From Actinomycetota bacterium (lineage in GTDB: Bacteria; Actinomycetota; Geothermincolia; Geothermincolales; RBG-13-55-18): a stretch of 64,000 nt of DNA. Both the position numbers and the translations under genes were made by a program. The DNA is taken from positions 184,367-248,366 of the forward strand of contig JASEFK010000001.1 in the NCBI GenBank assembly GCA_030019255.1. Reading direction: 5' to 3'. Below, in pieces: positions 3,849 to 48,912 of this stretch (position 1 is the first letter of the stretch; the number at the start of each line of letters is the position of its first letter). The notes under the pieces are model-generated. The model saw nothing but the letters and a program-made list of their open reading frames with translations. It was not told the DNA's origin and did not search any database.

Positions 3849-4394
3849 ATGAGGCTTCTGCAAAACATCCTCGGAGATGATTACCCGGAAGACCAGGCGG
3901 GGTTTACCCTCATAGAGTTATCCATCATCGTGGTTATCCTGGGCATCGTGCTCACCCTGGCGGTCGTCAATTACGCCAATACCAGCAGGTCCATGGCCTT
4001 GAAGGGGGCCCAGAGGCAGGTGGAAGCGGCCCTCACCCGGGCCATGAACGCGGCACGCCAGGAAAATGTCGCTTACCGGTTGATCTTTTATCCTCAGTCG
4101 GACGCTGCCCACCCGAACTCCTACGAGTTCCTTCACCGGGTGGAAAGTGCCGGCAACTGGAACCTGGAGCCGGTGGACAGGTCGGTGAGTGGGGAAGAGG
4201 TCACGGAGGACGCGGGCCATTACTACATAGAGGTTTCCAACGGTGTGAAAATCTTGAACGATACGGCAACGGTCATCGATTTCGTCCCCCGGGGAACCAC
4301 CCAGACCGTTACTCCCGCCACCATCACCCTGGGGCTGGGTGGATCCACCATCAGCGTGGTCCTTGATGCGCAAGGAAGAATAAATCCGCAATAA
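3849..4394 (+). CDS. Type IV pilin / pseudopilin (prepilin-type N-terminal cleavage/methylation domain)
   Basis: 181 aa. N-terminal G-FTLIELSIIVVILGIV is the class III signal (G|FTLIE) followed by a hydrophobic helix. GC is lower than in the flanking genes. Confidence 0.6.
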   Translation: MRLLQNILGDDYPEDQAGFTLIELSIIVVILGIVLTLAVVNYANTSRSMALKGAQRQVEAALTRAMNAARQENVAYRLIFYPQSDAAHPNSYEFLHRVESAGNWNLEPVDRSVSGEEVTEDAGHYYIEVSNGVKILNDTATVIDFVPRGTTQTVTPATITLGLGGSTISVVLDAQGRINPQ

Positions 4395-4398
4395 TGTT

Positions 4399-6792
4399 TT
4401 GCAGGCTTGGAGAGGTGGAGAGTGCGAGATGTGGCTGCGAAGGAAATTGGATAACCAAGAGGGTTTTTCACTGGCCGAGATGCTGGTGGCCGGCCTGATA
4501 ATAGTGGTGGGACTCATCCCCATCATCCGCATGTTCGACGCTTCCTTTTCGGGAATGAGGGCCTTCGAGAAGATGCAGAAGAGCGTGAGCTGCGCCCAGG
4601 CCGCCCTGGAAAAAATTCGCTCCATGCCTTTTTATGAACCCCATAAGGATACCGATGTGAACTTGAATTTCGACATCGACGATCATTTCTGGGGCAGTAG
4701 AAGTCCCATAACCAGCAATCCGGCGGATGGGGAAGGAAAACCGGATTGGAGCGCCGTTCCCGAGGTCACCTACTTCAACTACGGCGGTTTCCCGGGATAC
4801 GAACCCTACCGGGTGACGGTCCAGCTCTCCTATCTCGAGGACGACACGGGCGTGGCGGTGATGAAAAGCGACTGGGGGCCTAAAACGGTGGGGAAAGACC
4901 GGCCCACTAACAGCGACAACCAGGTCATCCACCTACTGTTGGTTAAAGTGAACGTTTACTGGCAGTCGGGGGATGGAGAGGACAGTTACGTGCTGCAGAG
5001 CATCATCACCGACACCGAGGCCATCTACAACATCGGTATATCCAGGATCGTCGTCACCGGGCCGGACTCCATAAGGGATGCTACCAAGCCCAACGCCGCC
5101 GCTCACTGGTCCGATCCCAATGTGAACGTGAACGTGAGGATTGAGGGCTGGGGCTTTGATGACCTGAACGACGCCAACGGAAGAGCCCAGGCCTGGCTGG
5201 TCAGGGACAAGTACGAGGATATCCCCATCACCATCACCTCGTGGACACCCACGGTGCTCGAGGGCTGGACGACCCTTTATACGGGACATAACGAAACGAA
5301 CAATCCGTGGAGGCCCAAGGCGGCCATCGGCTTCTGGTCGGTGAAGGTACGCCAGGAGGGGGTAATCTCCGCCTACCTGTATGAAGGATTCATAGTCCAA
5401 TACCCCAAGCCGGTTATCGACGATTTCGGAAATGATCCCGATTACAGCAAGACCGGCCCCAATTATTGGAATGCGGCCGTGCTGAAGATTAGGGGTGGGC
5501 CTTTCTGCTTCCCGGTGGAATACCCGGCGGTGAGGCTGATCAAGGTGGACAATGAGGGCAACGTCGAACACCAGATTAATGGAACGGTCACCGCGGTAAG
5601 CGCGCCGGATGGGTCCTACGGTTATGCGTCCAGCCCCGCTTGCGAGATCACGGCCACCTTCGACTTTACCGGCGCTCCGCCCGGTGAATATCACATGCAG
5701 GTGGTGAACACCAAGGAACCCACCATGATCGGACACGTGGCCTCGGATCTCTCCAGCGCGGTATACGTGATCGAGGAGGCCATACCCGAGGTATACGACG
5801 TTTACGTCTACGGTACCGGTTCCCACCAGGCGTATAACAACATGGGGAATCCCTGGAGGCTGGTCTTCGAAGGGAAATATTTCAACATGCAGGGGACTCC
5901 CCCGGTGGAGGTATACCTGTGCAGCGACGTGGTCAACGGACAACCTGCCGGGAATTATGTTCAGGGAACCGTTGTGCAGGTCATGAACTATACCTACGTG
6001 ATCGCCGACTTCAACCTCTCCGCCCTGCCGGAGGGCTGGTACAAAGGTTATGTTAAGAACCTGAACAACAACCAGTCCGGATGGACCGTAGGTTCGCCCT
6101 TCCAGGTGGTGGCCTTCAATGCCAGTATAGGCGGGTTTGTGCCCGACAACGGCTACAATTTCTACGAGAACTACTACGACATACCCTGCAAGATCACCGG
6201 GAACGGCTTTTCCGCCACCTCGGGGGTTTCCATCACCGACGGTTCGGTGGAATACAGCCTGGCGGGCGAGTACACCGTCACCAACGATAACGAGATAAGG
6301 GTGAACCTCAACCTCATCGGTTGCGACAACACCCATAACTGGAAGGTGAGAGTATACTTCGGAAGTTATTATATCGAAAAGGAGTTCGACGTCATACTGG
6401 GGCCTGCCAAGATACTCCCCCCCAGCGACACCAAGTATGCCTTAGCCATTTACGCCGAGAGGTGGTATTCAGGTAGCGAATGGCATTATGAGACCACTTC
6501 AACCAGGGCATATGCCTGGAGGAGTTATTGGTATGGGGCCGGTTACGCGACCTTCCGGGTGAGGGGGATGGGATTCCCCATGAATGGGCAAACAAACTTA
6601 AGAGTATGGGGTAGTGGTCTGGACGTAAATGGCAATTTTAATTGCACTTACGATCGGACCAACAAGATTGTACAGATTCAGTCCTCTAGATGGACCATGC
6701 CGGGCGCTACAGGTCTTTACAACATAGAGGTCTATAGGGTTGGCGATACTATTAAGGATACCTACACGGGAAGATGGGAGCTGAGGAGTTAA
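4399..6792 (+). CDS. Large pilin-like protein (prepilin-type N-terminus, ~750-aa aromatic/Asn-rich C-terminal region)
   Basis: 797 aa. N-terminal ...NQEG|FSLAEMLVAGLIIVVGLIPII prepilin motif, possibly starting at ATG 4429. The rest is W/Y/N/G-rich and predicted beta-rich. Lower GC than the flanking genes. Confidence 0.55.
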   Translation: MQAWRGGECEMWLRRKLDNQEGFSLAEMLVAGLIIVVGLIPIIRMFDASFSGMRAFEKMQKSVSCAQAALEKIRSMPFYEPHKDTDVNLNFDIDDHFWGSRSPITSNPADGEGKPDWSAVPEVTYFNYGGFPGYEPYRVTVQLSYLEDDTGVAVMKSDWGPKTVGKDRPTNSDNQVIHLLLVKVNVYWQSGDGEDSYVLQSIITDTEAIYNIGISRIVVTGPDSIRDATKPNAAAHWSDPNVNVNVRIEGWGFDDLNDANGRAQAWLVRDKYEDIPITITSWTPTVLEGWTTLYTGHNETNNPWRPKAAIGFWSVKVRQEGVISAYLYEGFIVQYPKPVIDDFGNDPDYSKTGPNYWNAAVLKIRGGPFCFPVEYPAVRLIKVDNEGNVEHQINGTVTAVSAPDGSYGYASSPACEITATFDFTGAPPGEYHMQVVNTKEPTMIGHVASDLSSAVYVIEEAIPEVYDVYVYGTGSHQAYNNMGNPWRLVFEGKYFNMQGTPPVEVYLCSDVVNGQPAGNYVQGTVVQVMNYTYVIADFNLSALPEGWYKGYVKNLNNNQSGWTVGSPFQVVAFNASIGGFVPDNGYNFYENYYDIPCKITGNGFSATSGVSITDGSVEYSLAGEYTVTNDNEIRVNLNLIGCDNTHNWKVRVYFGSYYIEKEFDVILGPAKILPPSDTKYALAIYAERWYSGSEWHYETTSTRAYAWRSYWYGAGYATFRVRGMGFPMNGQTNLRVWGSGLDVNGNFNCTYDRTNKIVQIQSSRWTMPGATGLYNIEVYRVGDTIKDTYTGRWELRS

Positions 6793-7397
6793 TGGCGGTG
6801 GCAAAAAAAACGCGCAACTTCCGGGAGAGGATGCGGAAAGAACCCGTTCTCCGAATAGTGCCTGGAGAGGCGGGATTTACCCTCGCTGAACTTATGGTGG
6901 TTATCGGCATCCTGATCATCTTCCTCATCGGGGTGGCGGGAATGTTGGAATCCGGCGCCGACAGCTCAACCACCCAGTATGTTCTGGCCCGGATAGAAGA
7001 GGATGCAGGAAAAGTACTGGACACCATGACCCGCCAGATCAGGGTGGCCACGACCATCAATCCCTTCAGCACCAACAGCACCCTTATATTCTCGGGCGAC
7101 CTGGATGGGAGCGGAACTGTTCAGGCCATGGTCTTTACCGTTTCTGGCGGGAAGCTCATGCGGGGCTCCGACCCGAATAACCTCCAAGCATGGGTGGATG
7201 GGGTGGAGAGCATAACCTTTACCTATCATCGATTCAATCCTGTCACCAAGGCGATGGAGGAGATCACCCCGGGAACAGCTGGTTGGAACACCCTCGTGGA
7301 CCGCGTGGATATCGCCATCCGATTCTCTCGCCGGGCGGGAAAGATAAACCTGCAGAGGGACTATACCGGTAGCGTGACCCTGCGCAACAATTTGTGA
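6792..7397 (+). CDS. Pseudopilin / minor pilin (prepilin-type N-terminus)
   Basis: G|FTLAELMVVIGILIIFLIGVAG motif after a basic leader. ATG 6792 overlaps the stop of the previous gene (TAATG). The alternative start is 6774. Confidence 0.55.
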   Translation: MAVAKKTRNFRERMRKEPVLRIVPGEAGFTLAELMVVIGILIIFLIGVAGMLESGADSSTTQYVLARIEEDAGKVLDTMTRQIRVATTINPFSTNSTLIFSGDLDGSGTVQAMVFTVSGGKLMRGSDPNNLQAWVDGVESITFTYHRFNPVTKAMEEITPGTAGWNTLVDRVDIAIRFSRRAGKINLQRDYTGSVTLRNNL

Positions 7398-7413
7398 CGG
7401 TTTCTTTAAGGAT

Positions 7414-8943
7414 GTGGGTGTGATGAACGGCATAAAAAAGAGGGCGCGAAAGGTGATGCGCAGGTTGGGAAAGAAGGCATGGGCCACCTTCCTCGGGCCC
7501 AAGGATGAGGGTTTCGCCATCGTCATCGTCCTGGTGGCCCTGACCATGCTCTCCATCCTGGGCGCCGCCAGCCTCCTGCTCATGGTCTCCGCCCTGCAGG
7601 GCGCGGTCAACGCCAGACCGGAGGATAAAGCCTTCCAAGTTGCTGAATCCGCTCTATATCTCGCTCACGCCAAAATAGTCAACAACGAGATAACCGGGGG
7701 GACCGTTTACACTTATTCGGGCGAGCTTCTCGGTGGGAGTTACCAGCTGGAGATCCAGCCGGTTGCGGGCACCTACAACTACATCGTAACCGCTACGGGG
7801 TCTTACGTAGAGAGGGGCACCACCTACCGACGCAGGATAAGGGAGGAAGTCATCTACAGTGGCCTGCAGGCCTTCGACGTGATGAAGAACTATCTCCTGT
7901 TCGCGGGAAACGATGTAAACATAAGAGCTGACGAAACCATCAACGCGGGCGCGCCCATCACCATCAATGCAGGTGGGGGCGGCTCCCTGGGGGGCGGCAT
8001 TCGAGCCGAACGGGACGTGAATATCACCGTGACTCCCGTTGTCAGCCTGGGCGACGGGTTGACCATAAACGGCGACATCGAGGCCAAGAGAAAGCTTTAC
8101 GTGCATGTGGGACCGCGCTGGTTTGGATCGGTCAACGCCAGGCTTTACGGGAACATCAAGACCGGGGATAAATCCACCGGACAAAAGGGTACCGTGGAGC
8201 TGTGGGCGGACGGCATAGCCCAGCTCTTCCCGCCCGCCTTTTCCTTGGCTTACATATATGCGGCCACCACTGGTTCCATAAATTGGAGTCTTTATGCCGG
8301 GACCCTTATAAAAACGGTGGACAAACTCTTCGGGTGGGACCTGGGGGCCATCTATACCCCGCCGGGGGCGCCGATCCAACAGGCCGCTTGCGATAAAGTA
8401 TATGTGCCGGAGCCCAACTTCGAGTACTACCGCGCTCTAGCCCAGCAGCAGGGAAATTTCTTCATCGGCGACAAGACCTTCAGCGGCAACCTAAGTACCT
8501 ACGGTACGTCCTCGGTGACCGTCATCTATTGCACCGGGAATCTCACTCTCAACGGCGTGGCCTGGGACGTGCCGAATATGAAGGGTATATTCGTCTGCGA
8601 GGGAAGCTTCACTGCCAACAACCGTCTACAATTCAATTCCAACTCCAAGTTTCAGGTCATCAGCAAAGGGGACATAACCTTCAACAACGACTGGTCTTTC
8701 CTTGGATGGGGTTCCACAAACGAGTATTTCTTCTGGGCGGGAAAGGATATAAACGTGGACCTGGGAATGTTCAACAATCAATATTGCCAGATGACCGCCC
8801 TGCACGATATCAATATCTTCAGCTCGGAAAACCTTTTTGCCACCTGCACCATCAATTACCGCGCCCCGGACGTGGATGTGGCCGGTTTCCCCATCGAGCT
8901 CACGGTTATAAACTGGAGGGAGATCAGCCTGGACCAGGAATGA
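7414..8943 (+). CDS. PilX-N-like minor pilin / pilus assembly protein
   Basis: 509 aa. Basic leader, then EGFAIVIVLVALTMLSILGAASLLLMVSALQGA, resembling the PilX N-terminal domain family. Gly/Asn-rich C-terminus. Confidence 0.5.
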   Translation: MGVMNGIKKRARKVMRRLGKKAWATFLGPKDEGFAIVIVLVALTMLSILGAASLLLMVSALQGAVNARPEDKAFQVAESALYLAHAKIVNNEITGGTVYTYSGELLGGSYQLEIQPVAGTYNYIVTATGSYVERGTTYRRRIREEVIYSGLQAFDVMKNYLLFAGNDVNIRADETINAGAPITINAGGGGSLGGGIRAERDVNITVTPVVSLGDGLTINGDIEAKRKLYVHVGPRWFGSVNARLYGNIKTGDKSTGQKGTVELWADGIAQLFPPAFSLAYIYAATTGSINWSLYAGTLIKTVDKLFGWDLGAIYTPPGAPIQQAACDKVYVPEPNFEYYRALAQQQGNFFIGDKTFSGNLSTYGTSSVTVIYCTGNLTLNGVAWDVPNMKGIFVCEGSFTANNRLQFNSNSKFQVISKGDITFNNDWSFLGWGSTNEYFFWAGKDINVDLGMFNNQYCQMTALHDINIFSSENLFATCTINYRAPDVDVAGFPIELTVINWREISLDQE

Positions 8944-12034: not shown

Positions 12035-12237
12035 AGCCGCGGAACGACCTCGTTCTCCGGCGTTGTCACGTTGCATGGCTGGGGAGGCGACGAAGCGGAC
12101 CGCGTGGTCCGGGATCGGGCCTCATTGGCTTGTGGCGCCAAACGCCAGGTAGGGTATCCTTCCGGTGGCCTCTACGGGAGCCGGTGGAGTGCCCGCCGAG
12201 TTGTTCGCTTCCCGCGGCGGTGATATGATGAATGAAA

Positions 12238-12272
12238 CCTTTAAATCCAGTCCCGTGAGGCTGGCAAGGGAT
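12238..12272 (+). promoter_or_regulatory. PyrR-binding loop (pyr operon attenuation RNA element)
   Basis: AAUCCAGUCCCGUGAGGCUGGCAAGG matches the conserved PyrR binding-loop consensus (ARUCCNGNGAGGCU...GCAAGG). It lies just upstream of a terminator hairpin and of pyrR. Confidence 0.7.
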
Positions 12273-12287
12273 AGCTGATGATGAAAG

Positions 12288-12326
12288 GCAGCCCTCCTGC
12301 GCCGGCCGCAGGGGGGCTTTTTTGGA
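12288..12326 (+). terminator. Intrinsic terminator (pyr leader attenuator)
   Basis: GC-rich hairpin GCCCTCCTGCGCCGGCCGCAGGGGGGC followed by TTTTTT. Confidence 0.75.
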
Positions 12327-24518: not shown

Positions 24519-24606
24519 GTCGGAGTGGCGGAATCGGTAGACGCGCTAGGTTGAGGGCCTAGTGAGGAGCTTCCTCATGGGGGTTCAAGTCCCCCCTCCG
24601 ACACCA
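24519..24606 (+). tRNA. tRNA-Leu (anticodon GAG), type II with long variable arm, CCA encoded
   Basis: Manual fold. Acceptor GTCGGAG/CTCCGAC. 3-bp D-stem GCG/CGC. Anticodon stem CTAGG/CCTAG with loop TTGAGGG (GAG). 16-nt variable arm. T-arm GGGGG-TTCAAGT-CCCCC. Discriminator A plus CCA. Confidence 0.85.
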
Positions 24607-44136: not shown

Positions 44137-44877
44137 ATGGAAAGCCAACCCATAGCCTTCTTCGACCTGGACCATACCCTTCTGGACGGGGCCAACGGCA
44201 ACCTGGTGGTGGCCTACATGGTGAGGAAGGGCCTGCTGGGCTGGGAAGCGGTGTGGAAGGCCCTCAAGTTCACCATCCTCTACCGGCTGAACCGCCTGCC
44301 GCGAGAGGAGGTCTATCGCTGGACCTTCCAGGAGTGCGGGAAGTACCCCATAGGGGAGCTCGTCCGCATGCTTGACGAGGCCTACGAGGCCTGCATCATG
44401 CCCCGCCTATTCCGGGAGGGCGAGGAGTGCATCGCGGAGCACAAGGCCCGGGGACACCTCACGGTGATCGCCACTGCGGCCGGGGAGTACATCTGCGAGA
44501 AGGTACGGGTCCAGATGGGGGCGGACGACAAGATAGCCGCCGTGGCCCCGGTCCGCGATGGTTACCTTACCGACGAGCTGGAACGGCCCCTGCCCTACGG
44601 GGAGGGAAAGGAACAGCTGGCCCGGGCTTACGCCGCAGCACGGGGGGTGGACCTTTCGGAGTGCTGGTTCTATTCCGACAGCCTGGCCGACCTCCCTCTC
44701 CTGGAAGCGGTGGGACATCCGGTGGCGGTGAACCCTCAGCGGAGACTGCGGATCATGGCCGAGGAAAGGGGATGGCCGGTCCTCCACTGGCGTACCCGGG
44801 CCGGTTACACGCAGCCCAGCCGCGCCGTACGACTGACCTTCGATCCCTTCGAGGAACCAACCTCCACTGGGAAGTGA
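44137..44877 (+). CDS. HAD-IB family hydrolase (SerB/phosphatase-like)
   Basis: 246 aa. Motif I FFDLDHTLL. HAD-IB cap-region pattern. Downstream SDS...D motif. Confidence 0.75.
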   Translation: MESQPIAFFDLDHTLLDGANGNLVVAYMVRKGLLGWEAVWKALKFTILYRLNRLPREEVYRWTFQECGKYPIGELVRMLDEAYEACIMPRLFREGEECIAEHKARGHLTVIATAAGEYICEKVRVQMGADDKIAAVAPVRDGYLTDELERPLPYGEGKEQLARAYAAARGVDLSECWFYSDSLADLPLLEAVGHPVAVNPQRRLRIMAEERGWPVLHWRTRAGYTQPSRAVRLTFDPFEEPTSTGK

Positions 44878-45060
44878 GAAGGTGAGATTGACGCTCGGCG
44901 AACGAGGGTTATAATTTATCCAGCATTTCATGCCGCCGCGGAAGCATGAGGGCGGCGCAGGGAAATGGCGATGAAGCTCGCCTTTTGCCCCCTTAAAGGG
45001 GCTGATAGCTTCTACCCAAGAGGTAGGAGCTCTTCTTTTTTAGGGAAGGTGAGAAGAGGG

Positions 45061-46842
45061 ATGAGTTCGTACAAGGAGATCCGGGATTCGATCCTCGCCA
45101 TTATCGATGATGTGAAATTTGGCGCGGAATTTGCTGCTTCCCGCACTCTTAGCGAGGGATTGGAAGGGGTAAGGCGGAAGCTGAAGGCGGAGAATTTTCA
45201 CGTGGTGGTCATGGGCCAGTTCAAACGAGGGAAGACCACCTTCATCAACGGCCTTTTGGGAGCGGAAATCCTGCCGAGCTCGGTGGTGCCCCTCACGTCC
45301 ATTAACACCATTCTTCGTTACGGGGAGAACATCAGGGCCACCGTTCATTATCTCGACGGCCGCAGCGAGGATATACCGGTGACCGGATTGCCCGCTTTGG
45401 TGACCGAAAGGGGAAACCCCGAGAACCGTTTAGGGGTGAAATACGTGGAGGTGTTCTACCCTTCGATGTTTTTGAAGGACGGGGTATGTCTGGTGGACAC
45501 TCCGGGAACCGGATCCACCTATCTCCACAACGACGAGACCGCATATTCTTTCCTCCAGCACGCGGACGCGGTCATCTTCATGCTTTCGGCCGACCCTCCC
45601 GTGAGCCGATCGGAGCTGGATTTTCTTCACCGCATAAGGAGCAACGTCCGGAAGGTCTTCTTCGTTCAGAACAAGGTCGATTACCTGGAGCGGGAGGATT
45701 TGGAGGAATCCCTGGCCTTCAACCGGCAGGTCATCTCGGAAGCCGTGGGTCTTGACGGCCTGGAGATCCATCCCCTGTCCGCGAAAATGGCCCTCAAGGC
45801 GGCCGTGACGGGTGACGGCTCGCTTTTGGAACGGAGCGGCCTGCCGGATTTTCTGGCCGCGCTCGAGGATTTTTTGATGAAAGAAAAGGGTAGGCTGCTG
45901 CTGGAATCCAGCGCCAGGATGCTCCAGAGGCTCCTGGACGACGAATACGCGTCCTTGGAGCTGGAAATGGCGCTTATCGGTCATCCCAGAGAGGAACTCC
46001 TGAGGAAGGTGGCCTCCTTCCGCGAGCAAATGGAATTGATACGGAGGGAGCGGGAGGAAGTCCGTTTCCTCATTCGGGGTGATCACGAACGCCTGGTGAA
46101 GGAGATGCTGGACGAGGAGATCGAGCGTTTCAAGAAAGAGGAGACGGCGCCCCTGCTACAGCGCTTCGACGCCTTTTTCGAGGAGAACGCTGGGCTTTCC
46201 GGTTCCTCCCTTAACCAGGCCCTGGCTGATTTCATCCGCGAGGAGATCAGGGAGACCTTCCTCTCCTGGAGGCAAATACAGGAGGAGCGGCTATCCGATG
46301 CCTTCCGTGCCATGGCGAGGATGTACATGGACAGGGCCAACGCCATCGCTAACCGCATTCTGGAAATAGCTGGAGACCTCTTCGGCCTGTTGCTTCCCCG
46401 CCTGGAGACGGAAATAGTTCTGAGTGATGAAGGGGAATTCTGGTTCAAAATGGGAGATTCCCTCACCGACCTGGAGATCATCTTCGGGGCCATCTCCAGG
46501 ATGTTGCCAAGAGGCCTTTCCCGCCGCCTGATAAGGAGGAAACAGAGGGCGGAATTGCTGACCCTTTTCGATCGCCACTGCGGGAGGGTCCGTTATGATT
46601 TTTTCCTGCGCCTCCAGAAAAGCGTCAACGCACTTTCCTGCCGGGTGGATGAGGTTATCCAGGGAACGCTGGAGGCCATCGAGATTGGGATAGAGAAGGC
46701 CTTGCGGGAGATGGAAGAGGGGGCTGGAAGGATCCTTGAAGCGCAGGAAGAGCTGCGGGATAGACAGGGGGTGCTGGCGGCGGCCCGGGAGAGGCTGAAA
46801 AAGGTCATGAAGGACGTTGCGGAAGAGCCCCGCGCCCTTTAG
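45061..46842 (+). CDS. Dynamin-family GTPase (bacterial dynamin-like protein)
   Basis: About 593 aa from ATG 45061. G1 GQFKRGKTT. G3 DTPG. G4 NKVD. Long helical stalk/paddle region. Noticeably lower GC than the surrounding core. Confidence 0.75.
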   Translation: MSSYKEIRDSILAIIDDVKFGAEFAASRTLSEGLEGVRRKLKAENFHVVVMGQFKRGKTTFINGLLGAEILPSSVVPLTSINTILRYGENIRATVHYLDGRSEDIPVTGLPALVTERGNPENRLGVKYVEVFYPSMFLKDGVCLVDTPGTGSTYLHNDETAYSFLQHADAVIFMLSADPPVSRSELDFLHRIRSNVRKVFFVQNKVDYLEREDLEESLAFNRQVISEAVGLDGLEIHPLSAKMALKAAVTGDGSLLERSGLPDFLAALEDFLMKEKGRLLLESSARMLQRLLDDEYASLELEMALIGHPREELLRKVASFREQMELIRREREEVRFLIRGDHERLVKEMLDEEIERFKKEETAPLLQRFDAFFEENAGLSGSSLNQALADFIREEIRETFLSWRQIQEERLSDAFRAMARMYMDRANAIANRILEIAGDLFGLLLPRLETEIVLSDEGEFWFKMGDSLTDLEIIFGAISRMLPRGLSRRLIRRKQRAELLTLFDRHCGRVRYDFFLRLQKSVNALSCRVDEVIQGTLEAIEIGIEKALREMEEGAGRILEAQEELRDRQGVLAAARERLKKVMKDVAEEPRAL

Positions 46843-47181
46843 GATGAAAATTCCCCTTCCGCCTTTCGATTAAGGGAACGGTCAGGCCATCGAGGAAAGC
46901 ACCTGTACGCTAGCAGCCCTGATTACGAACCCGGTTTCTCCAGTCGACTGACGAAAGTCCTCGCGGGCATGTTCACGGCGGGAGTAATCCGAGGCGAATG
47001 AACTTCTTCCTCCAGGGTCGGTATTGGGGCGGGGGGTTGCGAAACCGGGAAAGGGACACCCGCATGGAAGATCACACCAACCGGGTTGTGCAGCGGGGGC
47101 GAAAGTCTTAAACTTCCCTTGGATGACTTGGCGTACTAAAGCGCGCCCTGGGAGGGGTACCGGGGATTCGGGAGGTACGCC

Positions 47182-47352
47182 ATGGACCGAGATTCGGTAG
47201 CCCGCGGGCGCGCTCCGCTTCTGGCCGCCATCCTTGCGGGCGGGCTCTTCCTGGGGTTCGCCCTGGCCTTCCGGCTCGACGAAGAGGCCCGCCGGCGCCT
47301 GCGCAAGACCCTGTTCGAGCTCCGGGAACTGCCCTTCCGGGTGTTCGTTTAG
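47182..47352 (+). CDS. Small single-TM protein (hypothetical)
   Basis: 56 aa. GGGAGG RBS. Hydrophobic helix PLLAAILAGGLFLGFALAF then an Arg-rich tail. Ends 12 nt before the next gene. Confidence 0.35.
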   Translation: MDRDSVARGRAPLLAAILAGGLFLGFALAFRLDEEARRRLRKTLFELRELPFRVFV

Positions 47353-47364
47353 GGGGTGACGGGT

Positions 47365-48912
47365 ATGGCTGACCAGTATGACGTCATCGTGGTGGGCGCC
47401 GGGGTGAGCGGACTGACCGCGGCGTGCCTCCTCTCCAAGCAGGGCCTGCGCGTGGCGGTCCTAGAGCGCCTGGAAAGGCTTGGGGGTTGCTGCTCCAACT
47501 ACGACGTGAACGGCTTCCGGCCCGAGGTGGGGGCCATCTTCGTCATTGGGCACGAGTTCTATTACAAGCTCTTCGAGCTCCTGGACCTGCGCCTGGAGGA
47601 CTACCTGGATTGGAAGGTCATCGACCCCGTCTACTACGTGTATTTCGAGGACGGCAGCGCCTATCCCCTCCCCCGAGACATCGACGCCATGGCCGAGGTG
47701 GTGCGGAGCATATCCCCGAGCGACGTGGACGGCTATTACCGTTACTGCCGGGACATGGGCAAGCTGTTCGACGCCTACCTGTCCTTTCTCCGCCGCCCCT
47801 TGCCGGCGCTCCAAGAGCTGACAAAGATTACCAGCCTGGCGCGCCTGGCCGCCAACCGGGAGATCGTCTACGCCCTCCCCGTGAACCTCAAGCTCCTTTT
47901 CCGGAATATGGACAGGTGCGTGCGCAGCTATTTCCGCCATCCGCGCCTCCAGCTCATGTTCGGGTGGGAGAACCTCTACGCCGGGCTCCCCGCCCACCGC
48001 TGCACTGGCCTCTTCACCATGATGGCCCACATGGGGCGCATGGGTTATTACTACCCGCGGGGGGGCATGATAGCCATCCCCACGGCGCTGGCCCGCATCG
48101 CTGAGGGGTTCGGAGCCGACATCCGTCTGGGCGCCGAGGTGGACAGACTGATCGTGAAGGGCGGGGAGGCACGTGGGGTAAGGCTGGTCGACGGAACCGC
48201 CCTGACCTCCCGAGCGGTTATCTCCACCGCCCACTCGAGGATCACCTACCTGAAACTGGTGGGGGAGGAGAACCTTCCTTCCTGGGCGGTGCGAACCGTG
48301 CGCAGACAGCCGTGCTCCATCCCCGCCCCCCTCATCCACATGGGGCTCTCCCGGAAGCTCGAGGGCATCGGAGCCCACATGTCCCTGGTGGCCAACCCCA
48401 GGGAGCAGGTGGACAACATCTGGGTGGATTACTACGACCGGGGCCTCCTCTACCGCCCCGCGGACGGCGCCTACCTCCTGGTGTGCCCCACCTTCGACGA
48501 TCCCGGCCTGGCCCCGGAGGGAAAGGACGTCCTTTCCGTCTTCTACATCGCGCCCTACCGCCTGCGTTACCACGACTGGGACCGCATAGCCGGGGAGTGG
48601 GCCTGGGAGGTAGTGCGTTTCTTGGACGGCAGGTGCCTGCCGGGCCTGGCGGACGCGGTGGAATGGCTGGATTCCGTCCCCCCCACGGAGCTGGAGAGGC
48701 GGCTGAACGTGGCGGAAGGCGCCTTTTTCGGCATCGAGATGAGCCTGACCAACCTGGGGCCCTTCCGGCCCAATTACCGTTCCCGCCTGATCCCGCGCCT
48801 CTACCTGGCCGGCCAGTGCACCAATCCCGGCCTGGGGGTGCCTGGGGCCATGATCTCCGGGGTGGCCGACGCGGCCATCGTCCTCAACGATTGGGACCGG
48901 CGGTTGCGTTGA
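47365..48912 (+). CDS. Phytoene desaturase-family (CrtI-like) FAD-dependent oxidoreductase
   Basis: About 515 aa. N-terminal DVIVVGAGVSGLTAA dinucleotide-binding motif and CrtI-family pattern. Alternative GTG start at 47356. Confidence 0.75.
   Translation: MADQYDVIVVGAGVSGLTAACLLSKQGLRVAVLERLERLGGCCSNYDVNGFRPEVGAIFVIGHEFYYKLFELLDLRLEDYLDWKVIDPVYYVYFEDGSAYPLPRDIDAMAEVVRSISPSDVDGYYRYCRDMGKLFDAYLSFLRRPLPALQELTKITSLARLAANREIVYALPVNLKLLFRNMDRCVRSYFRHPRLQLMFGWENLYAGLPAHRCTGLFTMMAHMGRMGYYYPRGGMIAIPTALARIAEGFGADIRLGAEVDRLIVKGGEARGVRLVDGTALTSRAVISTAHSRITYLKLVGEENLPSWAVRTVRRQPCSIPAPLIHMGLSRKLEGIGAHMSLVANPREQVDNIWVDYYDRGLLYRPADGAYLLVCPTFDDPGLAPEGKDVLSVFYIAPYRLRYHDWDRIAGEWAWEVVRFLDGRCLPGLADAVEWLDSVPPTELERRLNVAEGAFFGIEMSLTNLGPFRPNYRSRLIPRLYLAGQCTNPGLGVPGAMISGVADAAIVLNDWDRRLR

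Follow-up and report, generated by a model that had tools for sequence, protein, structure and literature searches.

In the 64-kb stretch of DNA analysed here (the window), the gene of a solo dynamin-like GTPase is preceded by a fluoride riboswitch aptamer whose P1 helix and pseudoknot covary among relatives, whose pseudoknot strand overlaps with an intrinsic terminator, and which is paired with such dynamin genes across phyla, in related loci amid canonical fluoride genes. With a probability of roughly 60%, we take the locus to be a self-contained fluoride-response module made up of promoter, fluoride riboswitch, terminator and a solo, membrane-protective dynamin of the BDLP/IniA-like kind (Table 1). 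The physiological roles of bacterial dynamins are mostly obscure and an inducing signal is lacking for most of them; a ligand-defined cis-regulatory RNA conserved upstream of an entire subfamily, in five or more lineages of bacteria, would provide a defined signal, fluoride, and a testable phenotype.

The 5' leader and its pairing with dynamin genes

The promoter agrees with the consensus at 11 of 12 positions, and TTGACGC...TATAAT is kept in the window and in the related loci L001, L081 and L082. The HAD-IB hydrolase gene, syntenic in L081, L082 and L084, lies 5' of this promoter and hence outside riboswitch control. Between promoter and start codon, the aptamer ends 40 nt before the dynamin gene. 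In a local Rfam scan, it scores 34.8 bits with RF01734 (E = 3.7e-8), a margin of 0.8 bit over the gathering score of 34, and a purpose-built covariance model (R1) assigns it 64.5 bits. Its J1/2 linker is shortened (UU-UU, not uuAACC); P1, P2, pseudoknot and terminator are all intact and fully paired. Moreover, the 5' arm of the terminator includes the 3' strand of the pseudoknot, and folding of the leader (z = -3.25) yields the terminator hairpin in the MFE as well as in the centroid structure. Among five relatives, the best-conserved columns of the leader alignment are those of promoter, aptamer, terminator and ribosome-binding site, the last showing GGnAGGTGA. The order of promoter, aptamer, terminator and ATG at 45061 is that of a 5' UTR with a competing expression platform; going by sequence, the layout is a classic fluoride ON-switch, and the RNA of the window presumably binds fluoride. 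Riboswitch and terminator, located just outside the segment dealt with in the initial annotation, had been overlooked there.

The ATG at 45061 is favored by invariant M1 and Y4 residues in the homologues and by the ribosome-binding site GGGAAGGTGA, whereas a 625-aa ORF starting at 44965 overruns the riboswitch and was rejected as an artefact. Such 5' over-extended gene models are common (models of 615-677 aa occur among the homologue matches as well), and extending an ORF through the riboswitch hides the regulatory element.

Table 1. Features of the dynamin locus, in coordinates of the window.
Feature	Position	Strand	Basis
HAD-IB hydrolase gene	44137..44877	+	Pfam HAD 105.7 bits, TIGR01490 121 bits
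Sigma-70-like promoter TTGACG-16 nt-TATAAT of the riboswitch-dynamin transcript	44888..44915	+	Consensus match, conservation
Fluoride riboswitch aptamer (crcB motif)	44958..45021	+	Rfam RF01734
Aptamer P1	44967-44970/44979-44982	+	Rfam alignment, covariation
Aptamer P2	44987-44991/44998-45002	+	Rfam alignment
Aptamer pseudoknot	44973-44978 with 45007-45012	+	Rfam alignment, covariation
Intrinsic terminator (expression platform): stem AGCTTCTACC / GGTAGGAGCT, then CTTCTTTTTT	45007..45041	+	Terminator scan, fold
Ribosome-binding site GGGAAGGTGA, 8 nt 5' of ATG	45043..45052	+	Read from sequence
Solo bacterial dynamin-like GTPase, 593 aa	45061..46842	+	Pfam Dynamin_N, PDB profiles, AF2/Foldseek
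Predicted tip loop, residues 449-474	46405..46482	+	Low-pLDDT loop joining two ~60-residue helices
Lineage-specific noncoding spacer, no detectable function	46843..47080	.	No Rfam match; fold z = +2.3; single-copy in window and loci
Conserved region 5' of small ORF	47081..47181	+	Alignment with L001, L081
56-aa single-TM protein	47182..47352	+	Conserved ORF; stop 3 nt ahead of CrtI-like start
CrtI-family FAD oxidoreductase	47356..48912	+	TIGR02734 crtI_fam 285 bits vs cut-off 238

An aptamer is found directly upstream of the dynamin gene in 61 of 80 homologous GTDB loci and in all five metagenome relatives, at a distance to the dynamin start of 24-276 nt, and one gene farther upstream in four further loci. 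Carriers of the pairing are Geothermincolia, Syntrophobacteraceae, Desulfobacterales, Nitrospirota and KSB1, and its persistence across phyla at 35-40% protein identity is incompatible with an incidental association of RNA and gene. Pairing of P1 and pseudoknot is complete (100%) and accompanied by covariation, both in 20 sequences retrieved by a regular expression that left the P1 and pseudoknot positions unconstrained and in 88 distinct sequences found with the covariance model, with compensatory double changes at four of the six pseudoknot pairs. None of 500 shuffles reached the observed pairing value, and slid controls were only 34-62% paired. Of 62 homologous leaders, 59 have a terminator, which in about 44 overlaps the pseudoknot in identical register. 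Rfam's own model gave 12 matches at the gathering score in 14 loci tested, corresponding to 11 aptamers in nine loci when leaving out a minus-strand match in L024 that is not upstream of a dynamin gene. Scores with RF01734 are 28-38 bits for Geothermincolia leaders, some sisters being sub-threshold (28.5-33.5 bits), and reach 61 bits at the most among the homologous leaders. The dynamin family also includes a riboswitch-less paralogue clade, so that the link to fluoride is not obligatory for the family. All-against-all clustering of downstream ORFs did not reveal a conserved operon partner of the dynamin; apart from crcB-DUF190 in some loci, the genes that follow it vary, in keeping with an autonomous module.

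Other copies of the aptamer in the same loci precede genes for CrcB, enolase, Na+/H+ exchangers, a MutS_V protein and a hydrogenase-4-type membrane subunit. Within 6 kb on either side of the dynamin gene, 14 loci have antiporters, seven have enolase and five have crcB plus DUF190. In L082, L084, L085, L055 and L086, the order is riboswitch, dynamin, crcB and DUF190 without a second aptamer. Neither crcB nor another fluoride gene is present in the 64-kb window. A dynamin-like GTPase class is missing from the fluoride-riboswitch gene lists of PMC11139923, PMC2864571 with its supplement, and PMC7266159, and the link between fluoride riboswitch and dynamin is unreported in the literature searched (a scope that excludes the gene lists in Baker et al., 2012, and in McIlwain et al., 2021).

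The dynamin-like GTPase and its genomic surroundings

In line with the initial annotation of a dynamin-like protein of about 593 aa with G1, G3 and G4 motifs, Pfam Dynamin_N matches the protein with 92.7 bits against a cut-off of 27, and G1 (GQFKRGKT), the T79/T83 region, G3 (DTPG) and G4 (NKVD, i.e., NKxD) are without variation in 76 homologues. The G domain (about residues 44-250, positions 45190-45810) is followed by a helical neck/trunk. Searches with PDB profiles returned BDLP (2j68, E = 2.9e-48) and IniA (E = 1.3e-29), and Foldseek comparison of an AF2 model (pLDDT 80) gave TM values of 0.73 with BDLP (2j69) and 0.61 with IniA (6j72), supporting affiliation with the BDLP/IniA/mitofusin type of bacterial dynamins. 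In the model, the neck/trunk is folded back onto the G domain in a BDLP-like manner. The predicted tip loop bears an aromatic triad, F460-W/Y461-F/Y462 (F-[YW]-[FY]), conserved in the columns of the 76-sequence alignment, which makes this loop a candidate membrane-inserting paddle with a putative role at the membrane. Particular to the family are the invariant motifs TERGNPxN (residues 115-122) and CGRxRxDxxxR (residues 507-517).

The subfamily assignment proposed as a check confirmed the dynamin nature of the protein and left the DynA and LeoA models far below their cut-offs. With the DynA equivalog NF052648 it reaches 62 bits, the cut-off being 1600, and it has one G domain in 593 aa as against two in about 1200 aa, hence it is not a DynA; with LeoA (NF041922) it scores 24.9 bits against 325 and thus falls outside LeoA/LeoBC. 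Also the observation of a single dynamin instead of a tandem pair proved correct, as a second one was found neither in the 64-kb window nor in 78 of 80 related loci. Candidate tandem partners in L017 and L033, downstream ORFs of about 590 aa, proved to encode an N6 DNA methylase and a cytochrome c552, and an 859-aa neighbor in the riboswitch-less clade is GlnD-like and not a dynamin partner.

The gene had been described as lying in a compositionally distinct patch. Its GC content is indeed lower (57.2% versus 63.7 ± 3.4% in equal-sized windows, z = -1.94), as is its GC3 (0.74 versus 0.83-0.92 for the neighbors), but distinctness is weak, with 8.4% of windows equally low in GC and a pilin-like cluster at 3-9 kb lower still. 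The synteny comparison suggested at the same time showed the dynamin gene to be syntenic in relatives, so that the GC3 dip is no sign of recent insertion. A recent horizontal insertion deduced from GC was accordingly rejected, given the z value, the synteny and the lack of a tRNA or repeat boundary.

A terminator after the dynamin stop was not predicted in the terminator scan, hence read-through into the small-ORF and CrtI genes is possible. The stretch 46843-47181, previously singled out as unusually long and noncoding, does not contain an ORF shared with relatives and can be regarded as noncoding, but it does not encode a structured RNA: the proposed Infernal scan, evaluated by E-value, matched no Rfam family in this stretch, its fold is not more stable than those of shuffled sequences (z = +2.3), and when the conserved 100 nt were folded as an alignment, the covariation term was -0.12 kcal/mol. 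The sole hit of the scan was a chance M23 match within the CrtI gene. The site is a lineage-variable indel, holding unrelated spacers in some relatives (107 nt long in L001, about 490 nt in L081) and crcB-DUF190 in the five loci named above. Searches with the L082 genes (tblastn, blastn) did not detect any crcB or DUF190 similarity in the window, which rules out a decayed pseudogene and indicates deletion or replacement, not decay; a repeat or MITE was dismissed as well, the spacer being single-copy in the window and across all loci. On sequence comparison, the 339-nt gap is thus a deletion/indel scar where relatives have crcB-DUF190.

The region 47081-47181 is 76-86% identical to L001 and L081, the preceding 240 nt being without match, and is probably promoter and 5' UTR of an operon of the small ORF and the CrtI-like gene. 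A candidate -35 (TTGTGC, 47086-47091) and -10 (TAAACT, 47109-47114) can be read from the alignment and are absent from the promoter-scan output. The small hydrophobic ORF with its single hydrophobic stretch was well recognized in the initial annotation, the 56-aa protein having the same length in at least five related genomes (77-82% amino acid identity in L001, L081, L082, L084/85 and L088), with a nearly invariant C-terminal half, RLDEEARRRLRKTLFELRELPFRVFV, and a conservatively varying hydrophobic segment. Pfam and NCBIfam give no match to it. Judged by this conservation, it is a genuine gene, tied to the CrtI-like gene (91-93% amino acid identity in relatives) and not to the dynamin module.

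Proposed function and competing explanations

In the absence of fluoride, the nascent leader would adopt the terminator hairpin (45007-45031, followed by the U-run), ending transcription ahead of the gene. Once fluoride accumulates in the cytoplasm, the aptamer with bound Mg2+ and fluoride is expected to lock the pseudoknot, thereby sequestering the 5' arm of the terminator, enabling read-through by RNA polymerase and synthesis of the dynamin. The latter is predicted to be a peripheral-membrane protein with BDLP-like closed fold and aromatic FWF tip loop, remodeling or repairing membranes in a GTP-driven manner. By analogy with IniA acting under cell-wall drugs and DynA under pore stress, a protective or repair role can be inferred, by which the integrity of the cytoplasmic membrane would be preserved under fluoride stress, with its HF influx, acidification and an enolase/PEP depletion by which envelope synthesis is starved. 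A membrane-remodeling GTPase would be an unexpected addition to the fluoride regulon and would imply that membrane damage or reorganization belongs to fluoride toxicity. The regulon so far described comprises exporters and genes for pH/ion homeostasis, phosphate enzymes, enolase, DNA-repair-like proteins and hydrogenases.

Dynamin-family GTPases are trapped by the transition-state analogues GDP-AlFx, GDP-BeFx and GDP-MgFx. The GTPase could therefore itself be a fluoride target, with the riboswitch supplying extra or less sensitive enzyme, or it might soak up metal-fluoride. Providing extra enzyme would keep a housekeeping membrane function going, as proposed for riboswitch-controlled enolase and pyrophosphatase. 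This target compensation, which we consider rather unlikely, would fit the PDB fold relatives 8eew and 5gom solved in GDP-AlFx or transition-like states, and a Syntrophobacteraceae MAG in which two riboswitch-linked copies (L004, L022) and a riboswitch-less paralogue (L059) resemble an inducible-plus-constitutive arrangement. Fluoride riboswitches often control fluoride-inhibited enzymes such as enolase and pyrophosphatase (PMC11139923), and riboswitch-linked enolase copies adjoin dynamin genes. However, nothing indicates that bacterial dynamins become a physiological bottleneck in the presence of fluoride, and within the available sequence the riboswitch-linked copy is alone in most genomes of the set. 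Distinctly unlikely appears a far-reaching reading in which solo dynamins of about 590 aa are unrecognised core fluoride-resistance effectors across phyla and fluoride acts twice, by riboswitch induction and by MgFx/AlFx trapping of a GDP-bound G-domain dimer; if so, the dynamin would serve either as a membrane scaffold or sealant activated by fluoride or as a metal-fluoride sink, and membrane remodeling would be a primary, hitherto overlooked response of anaerobes and hot-spring bacteria to the toxicity of fluoride.

The low Rfam score and the shortened linker, the missing crcB-DUF190 present in L082 and L084, a dynamin frameshift in one sister contig (L088) and the identity of only 73-78% among relatives for the dynamin versus 88-93% for flanking genes could point to an aptamer decaying in the genome of the window, the dynamin now being constitutively terminated or expressed. 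We regard such a relic as very unlikely in view of the perfectly paired aptamer and terminator elements, the top conservation of promoter, aptamer, terminator and ribosome-binding site in the leaders of five relatives, and an intact ORF with every invariant family residue. DynA has been connected with phage resistance, and PADLOC matches LeoA (66.7 bits) and LeoBC (52.5 bits), so an anti-phage or generic envelope-defence dynamin with an incidental upstream RNA was considered, in line with the earlier idea of phage resistance. These matches, however, represent generic homology. PADLOC 'Leo' requires partner genes which are lacking at the locus, a second dynamin being absent from the window and from 78 of 80 loci. 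Moreover, a scan of 2.9 million viral contigs yielded only a single, partial relative, neighbors across loci are fluoride-stress genes instead of defence islands, and the aptamer-gene pairing is held across phyla. Membership in a defence system was hence rejected and this explanation is extremely improbable.

Comparison with known systems

With the fluoride riboswitches of Bacillus cereus crcB and Thermotoga petrophila (RF01734), the leader shares P1, P2, the pseudoknot between P1 loop and 3' tail, the GGCGAUG and CUGAU blocks, and the ON-switch logic with a terminator 5' arm overlapping the pseudoknot strand. The Geothermincolia variants differ from RF01734 by the shortened J1/2 linker and scores near or below threshold. 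Unlike in those riboswitches, the gene under control encodes a dynamin-like GTPase. In sister loci, the aptamer controls the canonical regulon of crcB, enolase, a Na+/H+ antiporter, a MutS-like protein and a formate-hydrogen-lyase-type subunit.

A Dynamin_N G domain and a helical stalk are common to the protein and to DynA of Bacillus subtilis, LeoABC and Campylobacter DLP1-DLP2, for which roles in membrane fusion or repair have been proposed. The latter are fused two-headed or paired, while the window protein has a single head and is partnerless in 78 of 80 loci. Nostoc punctiforme BDLP is the best match by sequence and, over the full length, by structure, sharing N-terminal helices, G domain, neck/trunk helical bundle and a tip between long helices. 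Compared to BDLP, the window protein is about 100 residues shorter, only 18-19% identical and has a short FWF-motif loop as tip in place of paddle helices, besides the TERGNPxN and CGRxRxDxxxR motifs and the riboswitch control. Mycobacterial IniA, which responds to cell-wall drugs by induction and keeps the membrane intact, is by analogy the closest functional counterpart, with a solo-headed BDLP-type fold of similar size. At 18% identity, the window dynamin is not its orthologue, and in place of iniB and iniC partners it is flanked by genes for a HAD hydrolase and a CrtI-like oxidoreductase. In contrast to IniA, its inducer would be sensed by an RNA, with fluoride, not isoniazid or ethambutol, as the predicted signal.

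Fluoride riboswitch in the leader of the dynamin gene

Scanning the whole window against Rfam at gathering threshold resulted in three matches, among them a fluoride riboswitch aptamer (RF01734, 34.8 bits versus a threshold of 34) located between a strong sigma-70-like promoter and the ATG of the dynamin gene, an element missed in the initial annotation. The 5' arm of the subsequent terminator-like hairpin (AGCUUCUACC) includes the 3' strand of the pseudoknot (45007-45012, partner strand 44973-44978). The leader folds far better than shuffled sequences (z = -3.25), with the terminator formed in both MFE and centroid structures. Besides, the stretch from the predicted transcription start to the aptamer contains a hairpin rich in GC (GCCGCC...GGCGGC), which may serve as 5' stabilizer; hairpins of different sequence are found at the equivalent leader position in the related loci L001, L081, and L082. 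Elsewhere in the window, a PyrR-binding attenuator (RF00515, 55.3 bits versus 54) and a tRNA-Leu(GAG) are encoded.

In the dynamin frame, the longest ORF has 625 aa, starting at 44965 and running through riboswitch and terminator (44965-45060). The start at 45061, however, is preceded by a ribosome-binding site (GGGAAGGTGA), and M1 and Y4 are invariant among homologues. N-terminally extended calls of 635, 644, 615, and 677 aa are present among database homologues, and the L082 gene call begins within the leader. Automated annotation thus masks the riboswitch because ORF calls extend 5' through the leader.

Features of the window and of related loci (L numbers) with dynamin homologues
Feature	Sequence	Positions	Strand	Remark
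Promoter, sigma-70-like	window	44888-44915		TTGACG-16-TATAAT
GC-rich hairpin	window	44930-44960
Fluoride aptamer	window	44958-45021	+	RF01734
Terminator-like hairpin and U-run	window	45007-45031
Dynamin ORF	window	45061-46842	+	593 aa
PyrR-binding attenuator	window	12234-12326	+	RF00515
tRNA-Leu(GAG)	window	24519-24606
Zinc-ribbon/HEAT protein	L008	826-1182	-
Zinc-ribbon/HEAT protein	L041	9614-10147	-
Zinc-ribbon/HEAT protein	L050	6903-7280
Zinc-ribbon/HEAT protein	L052	4307-4780
Zinc-ribbon/HEAT protein	L026	8438-8803
Zinc-ribbon/HEAT protein	L038	3682-4059
DUF190	L082	5028-5384
DUF190	L084	6394-6747
DUF190	L055	7873-8169
DUF190	L033	2985-3326
DUF190	L040	4219-4548

The prediction of a solo dynamin-like GTPase was borne out by a Pfam Dynamin_N match at residues 48-205 (92.7 bits, cut-off 27), by the absence of a second dynamin from the 64-kb window and by the lack of a partner dynamin at 78 of 80 related loci. 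The bacterial dynamin helical domain is matched weakly (Pfam), and DynA, LeoA, and CrfC only partially and far below threshold (NCBIfam). An identical protein is listed at NCBI as 'dynamin family protein [Actinomycetota bacterium]', while the closest named relative is from Candidatus Solincola tengchongensis (75% identity). Searching the PDB with a profile built from 76 homologues retrieved Nostoc BDLP (E = 2.9e-48) and IniA (1.3e-29), followed by Campylobacter DLP1/2, SynDLP, and mitofusins. The AlphaFold model (pLDDT 80, pTM 0.62) has a G domain at about residues 44-250 along with helices at the N-terminus and a long bundle of helices; Foldseek aligns it over the full length with BDLP (TM 0.73) and IniA (TM 0.61). 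Its one low-confidence loop, residues 449-474, bears a conserved F-[Y/W]-[F/Y] triad and is a candidate membrane-inserting tip.

With a GC content of 57.2% versus 63.7 ± 3.4% (8th percentile) and a GC3 of 0.74 versus 0.83-0.92 in neighboring genes, the dynamin gene does show the lower GC previously noted, albeit as a modest dip; a pilin-like cluster at 3-9 kb has an even lower GC. Encoded in this region (3849-8943; about 56%, minimum 53.8%, the lowest in the window) are pseudopilin-like proteins carrying N-terminal methylation motifs (GspH-like, PilX_N-like) as well as a 797-aa protein without Pfam match. Among relatives, divergence is faster for the dynamin (73-78% aa identity) than for the CrtI-like and TetR gene products (91-95%), and the downstream flank shows 88% nucleotide identity.

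Conservation of the riboswitch–dynamin pairing

Dynamin relatives (35-75% identity) at 80 loci, one without upstream sequence, were collected from GTDB species representatives of Geothermincolia/Actinomycetota, Syntrophobacteraceae and other Desulfobacterota, Nitrospirota, KSB1, and others. A loose regular expression leaving pseudoknot positions unconstrained found aptamer-like sequences 5' of the dynamin at about 20 loci. In an alignment of 20 of these sequences, P1 and pseudoknot are 100% paired with compensatory double changes at four of six pseudoknot pairs; none of 500 shuffles reached the observed pairing and slid controls were 44-58% paired. A covariance model built on this alignment gave 91 matches in 916 kb, placing a same-strand aptamer ending 24-276 nt 5' of the dynamin start at 61 of the 80 loci and 1-1.5 kb upstream at four further ones, two of these with an intervening Na+/H+ antiporter gene. 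Over 88 distinct matches, the pseudoknot is 100% paired with 77 double-change cells. As independent confirmation, the curated Rfam model gave 12 matches at gathering score in the 14 loci tested; its scores for the Geothermincolia group are 28.5-37.8 bits. Ahead of the start codon, 59 of 62 leaders possess a hairpin with U-run, which in about 44 of the 62 starts exactly on the pseudoknot strand. JGI metagenome relatives likewise carry the aptamer (5/5).

In a neighbor-joining tree, the riboswitch occurs in each major clade. Riboswitch-less members group together, chiefly in a Syntrophobacteraceae paralogue clade beside a GlnD-like gene, suggesting a different regulatory context; an 859-881-aa GlnD-like uridylyltransferase/ACT/HD protein is consistently encoded 3' of the dynamin in L059, L066, L074, and L080. 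Apart from crcB-DUF190, no conserved downstream neighbors were found at the loci compared. The inherited unit is the riboswitch plus a solo dynamin.

Several loci deviate in copy number or integrity. A KSB1 MAG (L069) has tandem aptamers (5702-5767 and 5844-5907) ahead of one dynamin gene, and L045/L049 and L038 have two to three aptamers per locus. Decayed copies occur in L004 (3080-3685), where an aptamer precedes a fragment of 69 aa corresponding to dynamin residues 26-73, and in L088, whose dynamin (1173-2939) aligns in three frames due to frameshift or sequencing error.

Downstream region and fluoride regulon

The order ADH-HAD-[riboswitch]-dynamin-...-56-aa ORF-CrtI-like-TetR-acyl-CoA dehydrogenases is kept in L001, L081, L082, L084, and L088. 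The long noncoding stretch behind the dynamin noted initially is present, with 339 nt compared to 107 nt in L001, about 490 nt in L081 and about 420 nt in L088, but a structured RNA is not indicated, as the spacer has no Rfam match and folds worse than shuffles. Only its last ~100 nt (47081-47181) are conserved, sharing with relatives a plausible -35/-10 pair (TTGTGC-17-TAAACT), a weak candidate promoter. The first 238 nt are unrepeated, found in this genome alone and without similarity to crcB/DUF190. In L082/L084/L085, crcB-DUF190 fills the gap. As more distant relatives also carry dynamin-crcB-DUF190, the parsimonious reading would be loss of these genes in the window lineage, leaving a variable scar. 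A 40-nt direct repeat in the L081 spacer (7959-7998 and 8035-8074, 97.5% identical) underlines that this site is indel-prone.

The small hydrophobic ORF holds up as a gene: it has 56 aa in all relatives compared, a near-invariant C-terminal half and conservative changes in the hydrophobic segment, and its stop lies 3 nt from the CrtI-like start. It encodes a real small membrane protein belonging with the CrtI-like oxidoreductase.

Extra aptamer copies at dynamin loci precede genes for CrcB, enolase, Na+/H+ exchangers, a MutS_V protein, and a hydrogenase-4/formate-hydrogen-lyase-type membrane subunit, i.e., the canonical fluoride regulon. Within ±6 kb of the dynamin, crcB+DUF190 occur at 5 loci, antiporters at 14, enolase at 7, MutS-like genes at 3 and a zinc-ribbon/HEAT protein at 6. 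In L082/L084/L085 (close relatives) as well as L055 and L086 (more distant), riboswitch-dynamin-crcB-DUF190 lacks a second aptamer, and dynamin and fluoride channel genes probably share one transcript. The small zinc-ribbon (CPxCW...CPxC) and HEAT-repeat protein, encoded directly 3' of a fluoride aptamer or of the dynamin, is an additional fluoride-linked gene. DUF190 (PII-like fold, Pfam 142.7 bits) is invariably 3' of crcB at the five tabulated loci; no paper in the literature searched combines it with 'fluoride riboswitch'.

Proposed function and comparison with known systems

At the sequence level, these comparisons establish the regulatory anatomy and deep conservation of the riboswitch–dynamin unit. 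Judging by what is established for fluoride riboswitches, binding of fluoride would stabilize the pseudoknot, block the terminator and turn on the dynamin gene. With high probability (about 0.9), this RNA functions as a fluoride switch governing the gene; a mere relic in the window genome is unlikely, since every helix and the dynamin ORF are intact.

The gene product would be a GTPase of the BDLP/IniA type, probably a peripheral membrane protein. BDLPs induced by stress, whether solo or paired (IniA, DynA), keep membrane integrity. Under fluoride stress, the cytoplasm is acidified and enolase is blocked, the latter leaving less PEP for the synthesis of the envelope (review PMC11139923). By analogy and in view of these effects, fluoride-induced membrane protection or repair is tentatively favored, at not quite even odds. 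The main alternative to membrane protection, that the protein compensates for a GTPase inhibited by fluoride or forms an assembly trapped by metal-fluoride, finds a parallel in enolase and in inducible-plus-constitutive dynamin paralogues of one MAG, but appears rather improbable. Phage defense, mentioned initially, is disfavored.

Among about 8 million full texts, with the gene tables of Baker et al. (2012) outside the comparison, no paper brings together fluoride, riboswitch and dynamin. The 2024 fluoride-response review lists exporters, antiporters, pyrophosphatase, HAD enzymes, enolase, formate hydrogen lyase, and chorismate mutase but no GTPase (PMC11139923), nor do the crcB motif discovery paper and its supplement mention one (PMC2864571). 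The leader has the layout of a standard fluoride ON switch, opposing ligand-stabilized pseudoknot and terminator. Riboswitch and protein fold are each of known kind, while their conserved coupling appears to be new, as does the solo ~590-aa BDLP subfamily that this coupling defines.
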